DNA of 51,795 bases from Alphaproteobacteria bacterium (GCA_965225945.1 CBDDBZ010000001.1:1-51795); one strand, 5' to 3'; positions 30,674-36,432 are shown, counted from the stretch's first letter. Notes: generated by a model not told the origin, from the letters alone. Program-made: numbers and translations.

Positions 30674-31475
30674 GCGAGATCACGCACATCGGTCTTGTGT
30701 GAGCGTCGTCGTTGCGCGACCCTAGCGGCTGCGCGGAGAGATATTTCGACGCCGTCGGCCGCGCCGTCCACCAGGGCGGCGATCGAGCGGGCCGGCGAGC
30801 TCGGGGGAACGCGGATGTCACGCATCGACCTACAAAACGAGAAACACGTCCTGGAGGCGGCGAGCGAGAACCTCAGCGACGGCCTGCTGGGCGAGGCGGC
30901 CGGTGCCTATGGCGAGCTGCTGTCGCACTATGAGGCCCTGGTGCGGCGGCTCGATCGCGACGCTCCCGCCGCCGAGCGGCGAAGCCCCGAGGCGATGATG
31001 GAGAAGCTGATCGAAATCGGCATCGCGCTCTCGGCCGACCACAACTCCGACCGGCTGATGGAATCGATTTTGCGCGAGGCCAAGGATCTGACCAATGCCG
31101 ATGGCGGCACCCTCTACCGGCGGACCGACGACGACCAGCTCAGGTTCGAGATCATTCGCAACGATTCCCTCGAGATCGCCAAGGGCGGCACCACGGGGGA
31201 GGCGATCGAGTTCGACCCGTTGCCGATGTACGACGAGAACGGCGAGGCGAACTATCAAAACGTCGCGACTCACGTCGCCCTCAGCAAGCGGACCATCAGC
31301 ATTCCCGATGCCTACGACACGGAGGATTTCGACTTCACCGGCACGAAGCGGTTCGACGAAGCCATGGGGTATCGCTCGAAATCCTTCCTGACGGGTAACT
31401 ACCCAGGTCTGATTGGCCCGAGCGTTTGTATGTGAGGGATCGTGGGGGTCCGGGCTGGTAGCGGTGCCGGTGTTC

Positions 31476-33014
31476 TCAGAGGCGCAGTTGGGGGATTAGT
31501 TGCATCGGATCGGGATGCACCAGGGTCTGGAGGACGTTCCAGCCTTGCTTTCGGGCGGTGGCGATGACGGCACGCATTCTGGCGAAGTTGTAGGCACCCC
31601 TCTCGGAGCGGAAGCCACCGGAGATCTTCTGGCGCAGCTTGGCCATTCGGAGGTCACGTTCGGCCTCATTGTTCGTAAACGGCGTGCGCGGGTCGGTGAG
31701 GAATCGCAGGCATCCCTCCTTGTGCTTGCGGAGGCGGAGCGCGAGGTTATGACCGATGCGGCGTTTCTTTCGTCCGCGCTTGCCGGTCCGGAGCGGCGGC
31801 TGCGCCTCGTGGAAGGCGATGGCGTGGTCGAGGATGCGGGCCCAGGCCCGCGAGATCCGGGCCACCAGGGAGGCGGGCACGTCGCGGCCGTTCTCACGGG
31901 AGAAGCGGGTAGCCCTGTGTGCGCGCTCAAGGAGGCGGTGCATGCTCTTTGCCCAGTCTTCCTTCTCGATGTCGATCAGGGCCTGGAGTTCGCGCAGGTG
32001 ATGGGCGTTGCAGGCGCCGTGGCGCACGCCCTTGAGGGTGAAGTAGGCGGCGTAATCGTCATGGATGAGGATGCCTTCGAGGTCCTTTTCGACATCGCCG
32101 CGTCCCGCGCCGATGCGCAGGACGGTCAGGAATGGGGTGCACAGCACGTGGAGCCAGCGGGTACGGGCGGCGATCCGCAGGCCGGTTTCGTCGAGGTGCT
32201 TGACCGGGACCGCTGTGCGGATCACGTCTGCGACATGGGCGAGGAAGGGCTCGAAGCGCCTGGCGATTCGCCGGCCCATGGCGGTGATCGTGGCTGTGGA
32301 GATGGACACTGCGAAGAGGTCGCTCATGAGTTCGGCCAAGCGCTTCTCGGGAACGAACTGGGCGTACAGCAGGTAGCTCACCCAGGCGGTGATGCGTGGC
32401 CCGTACTGGACCGGGGCGGTCACGCCGTCCGGGAAGACGGCTCCTGTCACGGTGGCGCAGGCGCCGCAGAGGCAGCGATGGGCGCGGTGTTCGGTGACCT
32501 CCAGGGGGCGTGGCTCGGGCACATCGAAGACCTGTCGACAGACGGGCGCGCGGTGACGGTCGGCGTCCGACAGCGGTGCGCCGCAGCCCGAACAGGCGGA
32601 GGGGTCATGATCCACAACATGGTCCGGGCTCTCGGTCCGCGCCAGCGTCGTTCCCTTGTGGCCCGGCTGGCCGCCGCTTGGCCTGCCGGACTTGCCGCGC
32701 TGGCTTCGGGTGCGCCTCTGGGTTCCGCTCTTCTTGCGCAGGCCGTCGCTGGCGGGCGGCTTGCTGCTGGTGGTGCTGTCAAGCGCCGCGCTCCGCTCGA
32801 GCTCGGCGATGCGGTCCCGCAGGGTCGCGTTCTCCCGCTCGAGCGCGGCATTCTCCCGGACGAGCGCCGTGGCCAGGCGCAACAGCCCCTGGCCCCATTC
32901 CCGGAAGGCCTTGACGACTGTGATTGCGAAGGATGAGGGGTCAAGAAGATCTTGCAGGCACGCGAAGGCCTCGTCATGGGCGGCGAGGTCCTCGTGCCAG
33001 CGCGACAGCGTCAC
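31476..33014 (-). CDS. IS66-family DDE transposase (TnpC type)
   Basis: Coiled coil + SSKPPASDG, CSGCG/CLCGAC zinc finger, HLDETG, IHDDY, CNAHHLREL, TNNEAERDLR. Confidence 0.93.
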   Translation of the reverse strand: MTLSRWHEDLAAHDEAFACLQDLLDPSSFAITVVKAFREWGQGLLRLATALVRENAALERENATLRDRIAELERSAALDSTTSSKPPASDGLRKKSGTQRRTRSQRGKSGRPSGGQPGHKGTTLARTESPDHVVDHDPSACSGCGAPLSDADRHRAPVCRQVFDVPEPRPLEVTEHRAHRCLCGACATVTGAVFPDGVTAPVQYGPRITAWVSYLLYAQFVPEKRLAELMSDLFAVSISTATITAMGRRIARRFEPFLAHVADVIRTAVPVKHLDETGLRIAARTRWLHVLCTPFLTVLRIGAGRGDVEKDLEGILIHDDYAAYFTLKGVRHGACNAHHLRELQALIDIEKEDWAKSMHRLLERAHRATRFSRENGRDVPASLVARISRAWARILDHAIAFHEAQPPLRTGKRGRKKRRIGHNLALRLRKHKEGCLRFLTDPRTPFTNNEAERDLRMAKLRQKISGGFRSERGAYNFARMRAVIATARKQGWNVLQTLVHPDPMQLIPQLRL

Positions 33015-33676
33015 GGGTCCTCGGCATCGACGGCCATCATGGCGGCCAGCACCGCGAGGCGTTCGCCCGCCGGCAAGGCCTTGTAACGCCGGCCCCAGTT
33101 GGCCGCCTTACGCTTGATGCGCTGGCGGTCGGTGAAGTTCCGGCCTGCGTAGCTCGCCCAATGCACCCGGTCGGGCGCGAAGTTGAACCACACGACCTCG
33201 GTCCGCACCTGGGCCTGGGTCGTCACCTGCAGCGCCAGACTGCGCCAGCCCGCCAGCATCTCGTCATAGAGCGCCGAGGGATGGCCCGAGACCATCACCT
33301 GGCAGGGCAGATCCTTGAGCAGGTCCAGGAGCGCGACATGGTCGACCTCCTCGTAGTCGAAGCGATAGCGCCGTGCCGAACGGCGGGTCGCGTGCAGATA
33401 GGGGGGATCGCTGTAGACCAGCTCCGGGCCCAGAAACGGGAACGAGGCCAAAAAGGCATGGGCACAGCCATGCACCAACTCGACCGGGTAGTCACAGGCA
33501 AAGGCCTCGAGCGCCTGCGCATCGCGGTCGATGCCGATCGAGCGCACGCCCGTTGGCTTGCGCTTCATCAGCGCACCGCCCCCCAGGTGGCTCTCGATGT
33601 AAACGCTGTGCGGCGGCATCAGCGCAATCAGCGCCTGGCACAGACCGCTCGTCGCCTTCGACCCAAAATATTCCAC
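33011..33676 (-). CDS. Compact Dam/D12-class N6-adenine DNA methyltransferase-like protein
   Basis: YFGSK (motif X), YIESHLGGG (motif I), IGID, YSDPPY (motif IV), VMVSG, RTEVVWFNF; GTGA overlap with transposase start. Confidence 0.85.
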   Translation of the reverse strand: MEYFGSKATSGLCQALIALMPPHSVYIESHLGGGALMKRKPTGVRSIGIDRDAQALEAFACDYPVELVHGCAHAFLASFPFLGPELVYSDPPYLHATRRSARRYRFDYEEVDHVALLDLLKDLPCQVMVSGHPSALYDEMLAGWRSLALQVTTQAQVRTEVVWFNFAPDRVHWASYAGRNFTDRQRIKRKAANWGRRYKALPAGERLAVLAAMMAVDAEDP

Positions 33677-33704
33677 GCGCCGCTCCCGTCACACGAGAGC
33701 GCAA

Positions 33705-33742
33705 CCCATAGACGCCCGATTCTATGGAGTCAAGAGACGATC
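33705..33742 (-). promoter_or_regulatory. Putative promoter/operator of the MTase-transposase operon
   Basis: Minus strand TTGACT-N17-TATGGG; inverted repeat CCATAGA-N8-TCTATGG; GANTC at 33718-33722 and 33727-33731; GATC at 33739-33742. Confidence 0.5.
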
Positions 33743-35295
33743 AACGACGCGGCGGCGGAAACCCGGCCCCGGCGACCACCTACATCATCCTCTCGCGGTC
33801 AGGAGCGGGGTACCTGGGTAGTTACCCTGACGGTACCGATGAAGACGCGCCAGGGCGACGTGATCGGCGTCCTACAGTTGATCAACGCCCGCGATCCCTC
33901 GAGCGGGAACGTGGTGAGCTTCCCTCGGGAAATCGAGGACTATGTCGGCGCGCTCGCCTCGCAGGCCGCCGTGGCGCTGGACAACCAGCAACTGTTGGAA
34001 GCCCAGAAGGACCTGTTGGATTCCTTCATCATGCTGATCGCCGGCGCGATCGACGAGAAATCGCCTTACACCGGCGGCCACTGCAATCGGGTGCCGGAAC
34101 TTGCGATGATGCTGGCTCGGGCCGCCTGCGAGGCCGAGGAGGGTCCCTTCGCCGACTTCGGCTTCGACGAGGAGCAGTGGTACGAGTTCCAGGTCGCCGG
34201 CTGGCTGCACGATTGCGGCAAGGTCACCACGCCCGAATATGTGGTCGACAAGGCGACCAAGCTGGAGACCATTTACGACCGCATCCACGAAGTCCGCACC
34301 CGCTTCGAGGTGCTCAGGCGCGATGCCGAGATCGCCTATCTGAAAGGATGCCTCGACGGCGGCGAGGAGGCGGCATTGGCGGGCCGGCGCGACGAGGCGA
34401 TCCGGGGCCTGGAGGACGACTACGCCTTCGTCGCCGAGTGCAACATCGGCGGCGAATTTATGTCGGACGAGCGGATCGAGCGGCTCGGAAAGATCGCCGA
34501 AGTCACCTGGACCCGACATTTCGACGACCGTCTCGGCATCGGCCACGACGAGCAAAGCCGCAAGGAGCGCACGCAGGCCGCACCGCTGCCGGCACTCGAG
34601 CTGCTGCTCGCCGACAAGGACGAACACCTGATTCACCGCCACCATCGCGAGACGCCGCCGGACGAGGAAGACCGGGGCTTCCGGATGGAAGTTCCGAAGC
34701 ACGAGTACGACAACGGCGAGCTGCATAATCTGACGATTCGTCGCGGCACGCTGAACGCTGAGGAACGCTACAAGATCAATCACCACATCATTCAAACCAT
34801 CATCATGCTCGAAAAACTGCCGTTTCCGAAGCATCTGGAGCAGGTGCCGGAATATGCCGCGGGCCACCACGAGAAGATGGACGGCACCGGCTATCCCCGG
34901 CGGCTGGCGCGCGACGAGATGTCGGTGCCGGCCAGAATCATGGCCATCGCCGACATCTTCGAGGCGCTGACCGCCTCCGATCGGCCTTACAAGAAGGCCA
35001 AGACCTTGAGCGAGTTGCTCCGCATCATGGGCTTCATGCGCAAGGACCAGCACATCGATCCCGAGCTCTTCGAGCTGTTCCTCGAAAGCGGCGTCTACCG
35101 GCAATACGCCGAGGAGTTCCTGGAGACGGCGCAGATCGACGAGGTCGATATCGCGGGCTTTTTGGAAGATAGCTAGAGGGTCGAGGCGGCGTTCCGCTCG
35201 CTCACCGATACCCCGCATCGTCGTCGGGAGCGGAACGCCGCCACGACCCAAAATCATCCCGGTCAAACGTTTCAACCTGGTCGGAAAGTGCTCTA

Positions 35296-36429
35296 ATGTC
35301 CTGATCGATAAATTGATATGATTATGTCTCTATTTGTTTTCAGGAGGCGCGATTGATGGCGAGAGTGGCGGTGACGATCTCTTTGAGCGATGACGAGCGC
35401 GCCGAATTGGAGGCGCTGTCTCGTCGTCGCAAGACGTCGCAGGGGCTTGCGCGGCGGGCTCGGATCGTCTTGGCGGCGGCGGAAGGGTTGGAGAACAAGG
35501 AGATCGCCGTTCGTCTCGAGGCGAGCGCGGACACCGTGGGCAAGTGGCGTCGCCGCTATGCGGCGGAGGGCCTCGACGGTCTGTACGACGAACCCCGCCC
35601 CGGCGCGCCGCGTCAAATCGGCGATGACGCCATCGCGGAAGCGGTCCGGCTGACGCTGGAAGAGACGCCGCCGGACGCGACCCATTGGAGCCTTCGCTCG
35701 ATGGCGCGGGCGAGCGGCCACGCGCCCTCGACCATTCATCGCATCTGGCGGGCCTTCGGCTTGCAGCCGCATCGCTCGGAGACCTTCAAGCTGTCGAGCG
35801 ATCCCTTCTTCGTGGAGAAGGTCCGCGACATCGTCGGTCTGTATTTGGCGCCGCCGGATCGTGCCCTGGTTCTCTGTGTCGACGAAAAGAGCCAGATCCA
35901 GGCCTTGGACCGTTCCCAGCCCCTCTTGCCGATGCGCCCCGGGCAGGCGGAGCGGCGCAGCCACGACTACAAGCGCCACGGCACGACCTCTCTCTTCGCG
36001 GCCCTCGACATCGCCACGGGAGAGATCATCGGCAAATGTTTCCCGCGCCATCGGGCCCGAGAGTTCCGCAAATTCCTCGACCTCGTCGAGGCGAACGTCC
36101 CTGGTGATCTCGACATCCACATCGTCATGGACAACTACGGGACCCACAAGACCAAGGCGATCCGCGACTGGTTCGCCAAACGGCCGCGCTGGCAGGCCCA
36201 TTTCACACTGCTGACCGACAAGCAGATCAGGCGCGGCGTCCATCGCTCCACCAAGGAGTTGGAGCGCACCATCCTCGACTACATCGACACGACAAACCAG
36301 AACCCCAAACCCTTCAAATGGACCAAATCCGCCGATGACATCCTCGCCGCCATCCAGCGCTTCTGCCTCCGAACAATCGAAATCGCTGAACAGCAGGCGA
36401 AAATCATGCGAACTTCGGAATCGGGACAC
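35296..36429 (+). mobile_element. IS630-family element
   Basis: TA on both sides (35294-95, 36430-31); imperfect IRs ATGTCCTGAT... / ...ATCGGGACAC; stop codon uses the target TA. Confidence 0.88.
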
Positions 36430-36432
36430 TAG
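35356..36432 (+). pseudogene. IS630 transposase with in-frame deletion of the third catalytic motif
   Basis: [26 protein letters not shown] present; HFT joins directly to [10 protein letters not shown], lacking the PTSASWLxQVERxF segment seen in the second IS630. Confidence 0.8.

Follow-up and report, generated by a model that had tools for sequence, protein, structure and literature searches.

An insertion sequence (IS) of the IS66 family carries, ahead of its transposase gene, a promoter and a methylase-like gene that together form a cassette shared by unrelated transposons. This 2431-bp element lies at positions 31395-33825 of the window, a 51,795-nt stretch of DNA from an Alphaproteobacteria bacterium (GCA_965225945.1 CBDDBZ010000001.1:1-51795) whose numbering is used throughout. 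Comparison of related loci shows that the cassette is not specific to IS66, and that its gene, which codes for a 221-aa homologue of the IncP-1 plasmid protein Upf31, switched transposase partners several times. As it stands ahead of unrelated transposases in many bacteria, the cassette is probably a built-in regulator of jumping, not chance cargo.

The element is bounded by perfect 14-bp terminal inverted repeats, located with a repeat finder: GTAACTACCCAGGT (31395-31408) and, at 33812-33825, its exact complement. Both ends are immediately flanked by CCTGACGG (31387-31394 and 33826-33833), an 8-bp target duplication. Only two long open reading frames (ORFs) are found inside the ends, co-oriented on the minus strand. 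The upstream ORF (33676..33011, 221 aa) contains VYSDPPY; the downstream ORF (33014..31476) codes for a 512-aa protein, and its GTG start overlaps the upstream TGA stop as GTGA (33014-33011). This 512-aa protein matches PF03050 (E 3.9e-41; DDE_Tnp_IS66 domain) and NF033517 (IS66; 290.7 bits, cut-off 180), both far beyond chance, as well as DUF6444 and, weakly, zf-IS66. An 8-bp target duplication and terminal inverted repeats starting with GTAA are the norm for IS66, and the window element has both. An earlier description of this DNA from the sequence alone (the sequence-only reading) had reported the repeats, the duplication, the two-ORF content, the GTGA overlap and the IS66 transposase, all of which were confirmed. 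The canonical three-gene layout of IS66, with tnpA and tnpB (PF05717) upstream of tnpC, is not present here. Nor is the transposase gene the sole gene, as in elements of ISBst12 type, given that the conserved 221-aa gene lies within the ends in 16/16 copies. The element does correspond to a transporter IS, in that a non-transposase gene lies within its inverted repeats and moves with it. Its features, and those of the gene that it interrupts, are as follows.

31387..31394, no strand: target-site duplication copy 1, CCTGACGG; the octamer is single at the empty site of two congeners (L136, L137)
31395..31408, no strand: terminal inverted repeat at the transposase-distal end, GTAACTACCCAGGT; 100% complementary pair, boundary of all genome copies
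31476..33014, minus: IS66-family DDE transposase, 512 aa, GTG start; DUF6444, weak zf-IS66, DDE_Tnp_IS66
33011..33014, minus: GTGA overlap of methylase-like stop and transposase start; 4-nt overlap in 30/75 related loci with a transposase gene
33011..33676, minus: Upf31-family methylase-like gene, 221 aa; predicted Rossmann methyltransferase fold, HLGGG, DPPY, basic C-terminal helical tail
33681..33702, minus: putative leader stem-loop between -10 box and start codon; GGGAG ribosome-binding site in the 3' arm, signal modest
33705..33733, minus: putative cassette promoter, TTGACT-17 nt-TATGGG with CATAG-N10-CTATG; arms at 33722-33726 and 33707-33711
33812..33825, no strand: terminal inverted repeat at the cassette-proximal end, complement of GTAACTACCCAGGT
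33826..33833, no strand: target-site duplication copy 2, CCTGACGG; from sequence and copy comparison
30695..31394, plus: interrupted host gene, 5' part, in frame with the 3' part; orthologues uninterrupted in L136 and L137
33826..35176, plus: interrupted host gene, 3' part (HD_5 / HD domain signalling protein), PF13487

The element has inserted into a gene for an HD_5 domain protein, one reading frame of which continues across it by frame arithmetic; the 3' part matches PF13487 with an E value of 2e-47. In two genomes of the same genus (L136, L137) the orthologous gene is uninterrupted, the flanks abut and the octamer occurs once. The sequence-only reading had suggested recent activity and proposed a count of genome copies as a check. 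With the element as query, blastn on the whole genome (6.27 Mb, 39 contigs) found 14 copies covering positions 1-2431, one covering 1-2427 (4 bases short) and a split copy, with identities of 99.88% or more throughout. The element was not found in either of the two congeneric genomes searched. Recent activity is upheld because the copies are near-identical, the congener site is empty and both congeners searched lack the element. A perfect 8-bp duplication flanks 9/14 full-length copies, mostly in AT-rich targets; the other 5/14 are without one, and recombination between copies may account for these. All 16 occurrences of the 221-aa gene in the genome are inside element copies and none elsewhere. 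We conclude that the element is an active, multi-copy IS.

The split copy (G000 C38:239517-243982) has an insertion of ~2 kb, with element positions 145-159 on both sides of it. Two other copies (G000 C37:248802-251232 and C33:300329-302759) share identical 12-nt flanks and the same duplication, GAATATTT, which suggests a duplicated region or redundant assembly, not two separate insertions. In one congeneric genome, otherwise without the element, 41 bp (G402:C5:1200002-1200042) match an end of the element at 98% and may be a solo end remnant.

We analysed the distribution of the cassette with a scan of one genome per species. At least 360 stretches encoding a relative of the 221-aa protein were found, and the best 80 loci were retained, with 46 isolates, 9 phyla and 72/80 loci in Pseudomonadota. 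The downstream gene was classed by tblastn with six representative transposases, and representatives were also compared with Pfam and NCBIfam. Three lineages belong to IS66: the window's own type, IS66a (11/80 loci, transposases 71-100% identical); a second, IS66b (36/80 loci, 28-35% identical; L048 reaches 248 bits on NF033517); and a third, IS66c (3/80 loci, 327 bits). IS701-family transposases (IS701a) follow the gene at 5/80 loci, with 309 bits on NF049999 for L026, and IS701-like ones (IS701b) at 2/80 loci, L052 being just below the cut-off of 170 with 157.7 bits. Transposases at 18/80 loci are called IS4/ISAs1-like, because their DDE_Tnp_1_assoc and DDE_Tnp_1 profile scores are below cut-offs and no NCBIfam model passes. 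No transposase is found downstream at 5/80 loci, 2 of which end at a contig end. At L029, L068 and L089, loci without a downstream transposase, the cassette gene is followed instead by a truncated ORF, a gene for a hydrolase and an opposed major facilitator superfamily gene; L029 keeps an IS66b-like end upstream and looks like a decayed element.

Element boundaries, fixed by comparing copies within genomes, delimited the following units.

IS4/ISAs1-like units: ~2145 bp, ends CAGCAGTTCTCATTTTG, 9-bp duplication
IS66b units: 2240-2294 bp, ends GTAACTACTC, 8-bp duplication
IS701 units: 2537-2781 bp, ends CTCGACTTTGT, 5-bp duplication of the form CTNAG
IS66c units: 3631 bp, ends GTAAGCG, 8-bp duplication

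In all mapped families, the methylase-like gene lies inside the ends, upstream of the transposase gene and co-oriented with it. The far end of IS66c units also carries TnpB_IS66 (PF05717, E 7e-29) and an ORF of 100 aa on the opposite strand (relatives L090, L091). The methylase-like gene is no stand-in for the classical accessory genes, because IS66c carries both the cassette and TnpB. The sequence-only reading had placed the gene in the accessory-gene slot of IS66. This view does not hold, since the same cassette is found in IS701 and IS4/ISAs1-like elements and coexists with TnpB in IS66c.

Some carriers have additional features. The layout of IS66c (L090/L091 3885-7515) is convergent, the cassette and tnpC pointing inward from one end, TnpB_IS66 and the 100-aa ORF from the other. 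Two IS701 carriers (L026 3472-4002 and L092 3611-4516, both on the minus strand) have an extra, divergent ORF of ~176 aa between the inverted repeat and the cassette, with a weak DUF3024 match only (E 0.002). At L060 (4939-6651) an IS1634-family element lies between the cassette gene and the IS701-like transposase gene; IS1634 was rejected as a fourth carrier family, this being a nested insertion. A homologue beside the IS1380-like ISSp1 transposase on a Sphingobium plasmid was also rejected as carrier, and the adjacency is considered incidental because the downstream genes differ in two other records with the same protein.

The window element and the IS701 element at L027 resemble each other in DNA sequence only over element positions 77-833 (83% identity). 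This likeness begins 16 nt ahead of the -35 box and ends 18 nt beyond the stop codon; the transferable unit therefore consists of promoter, leader and gene. A careful maximum-likelihood protein tree (83 rows, 59 distinct sequences, two plasmid outgroups, 200 bootstrap trees) separated the IS-borne proteins from the two plasmid outgroups and placed the window protein in a starred clade whose members have IS66 or IS701 partners. The tree requires 3 partner changes for IS701, all forced by starred branches, 2 for IS4/ISAs1-like (1 forced) and 11 for IS66 (6 forced). None of these three partner classes forms a single clade in any of the 200 bootstrap trees.

The cassette gene and the transposase gene are closely linked at the 75 loci that have both. 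A 4-nt overlap (ATGA or GTGA) occurs at 30/75 loci and another overlap at 4/75, while the first in-frame start is 3-36 nt after the stop codon at 32/75 and at +67 at 3/75; the arrangement is degraded or interrupted at 6/75. RNA-library contigs from three studies contain the element and span the junction of its genes, but such contigs show no transcript, start or strand, and DNA carry-over is possible.

Within IS66, the cassette marks particular lineages, not the family, because distant IS66 relatives lack the gene. It is absent from the second IS66 of the same genome, and 0/28 loci with homologues of the window transposase (27-58% identity) have it; these loci come from 400 sampled genomes of the phylum, of which 22 have a homologue, with 1.5-kb flanks where the contig allows. 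Among annotated plasmid-borne transposases, the closest reach 48% identity at most and belong to single-ORF IS66 elements, ISGst1 and ISGka4 being the names annotated on the best relatives. In contrast, the gene is kept in every diverged relative of the window IS found through the gene (L015-L025, transposases 71-100% identical). The sequence-only reading had raised the possibility that close transposase homologues mostly lack the gene, which applies to the homologues at 27-58% identity but not to the relatives at 71-100% found through the gene. It had also proposed searching genomes for the gene beside IS66 transposases; the association recurs in three IS66 lineages but is not specific to IS66.

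The second IS66-family element of this genome is present in roughly 25 or more copies (e.g. L013 1934-3394, on C31). It consists of a single 486-aa ORF, 52% identical to the window transposase, without a methylase-like gene. Two identical 373-aa DDE transposase ORFs in tandem (L013 3594-4715 and 4892-6013) adjoin one copy, a further sign of a genome crowded with ISs. Just downstream of the interrupted HD gene of the window, a 359-aa ORF (35353-36432, plus strand) resembles an IS630/Tc1-type transposase by eye.

The cassette protein and Upf31 of pBP136, the product of a 675-bp gene, are homologous over their full lengths (43% identity over 222 columns, E 9e-65). As in the Upf31 family, its gene has a promoter of its own, in which an inverted repeat adjoins and overlaps the -35 and -10 boxes. 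Passages of PMC11997246 describe Upf31 of IncP-1beta plasmids (pBP136, R751) as a predicted Dam-like methylase for which DpnI/MboI digestion gave no evidence of GATC methylation and sequencing in single-molecule real-time (SMRT) mode no kinetic signature. According to the same passages, a 68-bp fragment upstream of upf31 has promoter activity, full-length Upf31 represses its own promoter ~50-fold, the C-terminal part being required, and the authors propose that Upf31 binds to the promoter inverted repeats CAGCATCG (PMC11997246). The pBP136 promoter is TTGACAGCATCG. A Pseudomonas IncP plasmid relative has TTGACATCATCG-N-CGATG, i.e. CATCG-N10-CGATG, and one Xanthomonas and one Shewanella plasmid relative have CATAG-N10-CTATG. 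Because plasmid relatives share it, the promoter/operator architecture must be older than its capture by ISs.

Upstream of the gene, carriers of all classes have TTGAC-N2-CATAG-N10-CTATG, the second arm of the repeat lying in a TATGGT-like -10 box that is separated from the -35 box by 17 nt. The motif was detected in 64 of 78 anchorable loci in relaxed form and in 50 of 78 in strict form, with 35 distinct versions and a spacer that is nearly always N10. CATAG-N10-CTATG occurs 16 times in the genome, always in IS copies, as opposed to ~1.7 occurrences expected by base composition. The -10 box of the window element is TATGGG, and the assignment of its promoter is based on resemblance to the upf31 promoter region, which has been tested. 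Most leaders could form a stem-loop just after the -10 box, with the ribosome-binding site in its 3' arm; the stems differ by lineage. Folded singly, 31 distinct leaders gave a modest signal (median z -1.68; 24 with z < -1, 9 with z < -2). RNAalifold on a MAFFT alignment of 22 leaders yielded no consensus structure, since stems from separate lineages are out of register in the alignment. IS4/ISAs1-like carriers are devoid of a leader stem-loop, and their start codon follows the -10 box by a few bases; they may make a nearly leaderless mRNA.

We also analysed the 221-aa protein. Pfam returned no match, PF02086 included, and TIGR00571 (dam) scored 24.2 bits for a cut-off of 114.85, covering profile positions 175-250 only, i.e. 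the DPPY half. Profile matches to phage and type II DNA methyltransferases were found with PHROG 56 (E 1e-19) and PADLOC MTase_II (E 7e-22), and a PDB-sequence profile search gave a weak match to DpnM only (E 0.008). In an AlphaFold model (24 sequences, mean pLDDT 76), two C-terminal helices come after a core of the Rossmann methyltransferase type. Helix 72-78 is all that this model has at the place of the Dam target-recognition domain, between strands 66-69 and 86-89, and an inserted domain of Dam type is thus missing. With this model, Foldseek retrieved many S-adenosylmethionine (SAM)-dependent methyltransferases, Escherichia coli Dam being among the best (TMq 0.54). A predicted homodimer scored 0.27, for a mark of 0.42. 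In the alignment, G32-G34 and D90-P92 are invariant, Y93 is nearly so and D50 is invariant or nearly so, in keeping with the glycine loop, DPPY motif and Rossmann fold of methyltransferases; DPPY is retained in 117/118 close homologues and in 108/114 full-length family representatives. The designation 'DNA adenine methyltransferase' in the sequence-only reading thus agrees with the fold and the DPPY motif but not with family membership, there being no Pfam match and a TIGR00571 score below cut-off. Because DPPY is conserved, the protein may nevertheless transfer methyl groups.

The ratio of non-synonymous to synonymous substitutions (dN/dS) of the methylase-like gene is 0.13-0.30 in 13/13 pairs, within and between carrier families, which indicates purifying selection. 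Together with the presence of the gene in all 16 copies, its retention in diverged relatives and its coupling to the transposase gene, this bears out the earlier proposal that it is an integral part of the element. The family is large: a word-index search found 3793 proteins at E <=0.001, and an exhaustive search of cluster representatives found 5554 matches at the same threshold. The best 120 of the 3793 proteins are 71-99% identical to the window protein, many of them on contigs of 1-3 kb, as expected because IS repeats break assemblies. In a plasmid collection, 189 records have relatives, all of <60% identity, and 134/189 are conjugative. These plasmid relatives are annotated 'DNA adenine methylase' and are stand-alone genes in the records inspected.

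These features suggest the following mechanism. An IS66 element of the tnpA/tnpB-less kind would have taken up a portable cassette of ~0.75 kb that comprises a sigma-70-type promoter with CATAG-N10-CTATG, a short leader hairpin and the gene for a 221-aa Upf31-family protein with a predicted Dam fold. The transposase gene would be the second cistron of the cassette operon and is probably expressed only in this manner, because there is no promoter region between the two genes and the start codon lies within the stop codon of the cassette gene. The protein would bind the inverted repeat that overlaps the -10 box and repress its own promoter. Transposase synthesis would then be under negative feedback, exerted in trans on all copies, and the cassette would act as a copy-number governor. 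Because such a repressor would recognize its own promoter, not the transposon ends, the cassette would work before any transposase and be portable, and this portability would account for the fact that IS66, IS701 and IS4/ISAs1-like elements captured it repeatedly. We give this proposal, i.e. autorepression through the inverted repeat as for Upf31, with the transposase gene as coupled second cistron under trans-acting negative feedback, about an even chance of being correct.

Several observations weigh against it. DNA binding, repression, co-transcription and an effect on transposition are all inferred here, unlike the anatomy, the mobility, the sharing of the cassette across families, the purifying selection, the Upf31 homology and the promoter and repeat architecture, which the data show. 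Part of the reported effects of Upf31 runs through KorB, which an IS lacks. The relaxed promoter motif was missed in 14/78 loci, 2 further loci were not anchorable, and the plasmid relatives from Methylomonas, Sphingobium and Acinetobacter (3/7 inspected) have no such repeat. A sigma-70 consensus scan found 0 promoter-like sites in the window element, the -10 box being TATGGG. The arms of the repeat are 15 bp apart centre to centre, an unusual distance for a dimer on one face of the helix. In addition, a pure repressor would not need the conserved DPPY motif. Finally, the loci were found with the cassette gene itself, and the IS-borne share among them is therefore no unbiased estimate for the wider family.

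The conservation of DPPY rather favours another explanation, namely that the protein is a working N6-adenine DNA methyltransferase that methylates CATAG in its own promoter, at the -10 box, and thereby ties operon expression, and with it transposition, to the hemimethylated state after replication. Its predicted Rossmann methyltransferase fold, with E. coli Dam among the top structural matches, the PHROG 56 and MTase_II matches, the weak TIGR00571 and DpnM matches and the conservation of the GGG motif and D50 are consistent with such an activity, as is the overlap of the conserved repeat with the -10 box. The whole-protein dam score is nevertheless far below cut-off, and the model has a single helix and no counterpart of the Dam target-recognition domain. 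CATAG/CTATG is not enriched in the element (3 occurrences versus 2.5 in shuffles) and is absent from its ends. As no putative recognition motif is found there, methylation control at the ends in the manner of IS10 is without sequence support. The lack of GATC methylation and of a SMRT signature for Upf31, as given in passages of PMC11997246, also argues against a methylase, although an enzyme with few target sites could have escaped the SMRT test. We consider methylation of the promoter to be unlikely, if far from negligible; it and autorepression are not mutually exclusive.

The gene might also be anti-restriction or host-methylome cargo, with an orphan methylase protecting element-bearing DNA or the host during transfer and the IS as its vehicle. 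The stand-alone plasmid genes, 45-55% identical, would fit this role, since those inspected are in backbone regions near transfer genes, and the occurrence of the IS-borne clade in 9 phyla implies frequent horizontal transfer. However, a chromosomal IS in 16 copies gains little from protecting DNA, and passages of PMC11997246 report no activity for Upf31. Neither the fixed upstream, co-oriented and coupled position before the transposase gene in every family nor the promoter that travels with the gene is explained in this manner, and we find such a role improbable. Neutral passenger DNA, picked up by chance and without a role for the element, has precedents in transporter ISs, a recognized class according to passages of PMC9330008, and more distant IS66 relatives manage without the gene. 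Yet dN/dS values of 0.13-0.30, an intact gene in all 16 copies and repeated independent capture by three transposase families, always in the same position, are hard to reconcile with neutrality, and so is a transposase gene directly downstream at 75/80 loci (2/5 of the others end at a contig end), a share that is not unbiased for the wider family because the loci were found with the cassette gene. We regard chance pick-up as very improbable.

Autorepression by the cassette protein can be extended to a broader proposal, which we advance tentatively and think somewhat more apt to fail than to hold. A Upf31-family protein and its self-repressed promoter would form a governor cassette captured repeatedly by unrelated DDE transposons and exerting copy-number-dependent control, possibly with N6-methyladenine on the operator opening expression only after replication. 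It would be the first transposase-independent regulatory module shared between IS families.

To our knowledge, self-limitation of ISs is known for few model elements only, and each regulator is tied to one transposase family. A module exchangeable between families would, if the proposal is true, represent a new principle of transposon self-control. It would also provide a function for a large family of annotated 'DNA adenine methylases', with its 5554 cluster representatives at E <=0.001, and link this family to the unexplained Upf31 phenotype of IncP-1 plasmids. Metagenome annotators should not take these genes for restriction-modification or epigenetic ones; they mark IS copies that break assemblies into contigs of ~2.3 kb. 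A search of the full-text literature, with ISfinder and TnPedia outside its scope, found no published account of a Upf31-like or methylase cassette within an IS, nor is there one in passages of PMC9296519, PMC9330008 and PMC11410982.

The window element shares the DDE_Tnp_IS66 and DUF6444 domains, the GTAA ends and the 8-bp duplication with the tnpA/tnpB-less IS66 elements, which we take to be the ISBst12 group. Those elements encode the transposase alone, whereas here a promoter and a 221-aa gene precede it and overlap its start. With the D12 class of methylases (Dam, DpnM, T4 Dam), the cassette protein has in common the predicted Rossmann fold, an N-terminal GSK motif, a glycine-rich SAM loop and DPPY; in contrast to them, it has no Dam-type target-recognition domain and fails the PF02086 and TIGR00571 cut-offs. 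Upf31 is its closest studied counterpart, of similar size (224 versus 221 aa), both proteins having HLGGG, DPPY and a basic C-terminal tail, and the promoter TTGACA and then a CAT(A/C)G half-site. Upf31 belongs to the plasmid backbone and to the KorB network, whereas the IS version would drive a transposase gene and has CATAG, not CATCG. Autorepression has been demonstrated for Upf31 only (PMC11997246); that of the cassette protein is proposed by analogy.

Dam controls IS10, IS50 and IS903, according to passages of PMC9296519. There as here, synthesis of the transposase would be limited by a site in its promoter that is sensitive to methylation or bound by a protein. In those elements the enzyme is the host's and sites are also present in the ends, whereas the candidate enzyme is element-borne here and the ends have no candidate site. 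In transporter ISs, a passenger gene within the inverted repeats moves with the IS (passages of PMC9330008). The window element likewise has an extra gene inside its inverted repeats, but this passenger is the first cistron of the predicted transposase operon and recurs across IS families.

Element-encoded repressors of transposition include InsA of IS1, OrfA of IS911 and the inhibitor protein of Tn5, which derive from the transposase or bind like it and are family-specific. In these systems, as proposed for the cassette, a trans-acting product of the element damps the transposase and controls copy number. The putative cassette regulator differs from them in being unrelated to the transposase and interchangeable between families. 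The element would be of a known kind, namely an IS that regulates itself and has an accessory or passenger gene; what is unusual is a putative regulator shared between transposase families.

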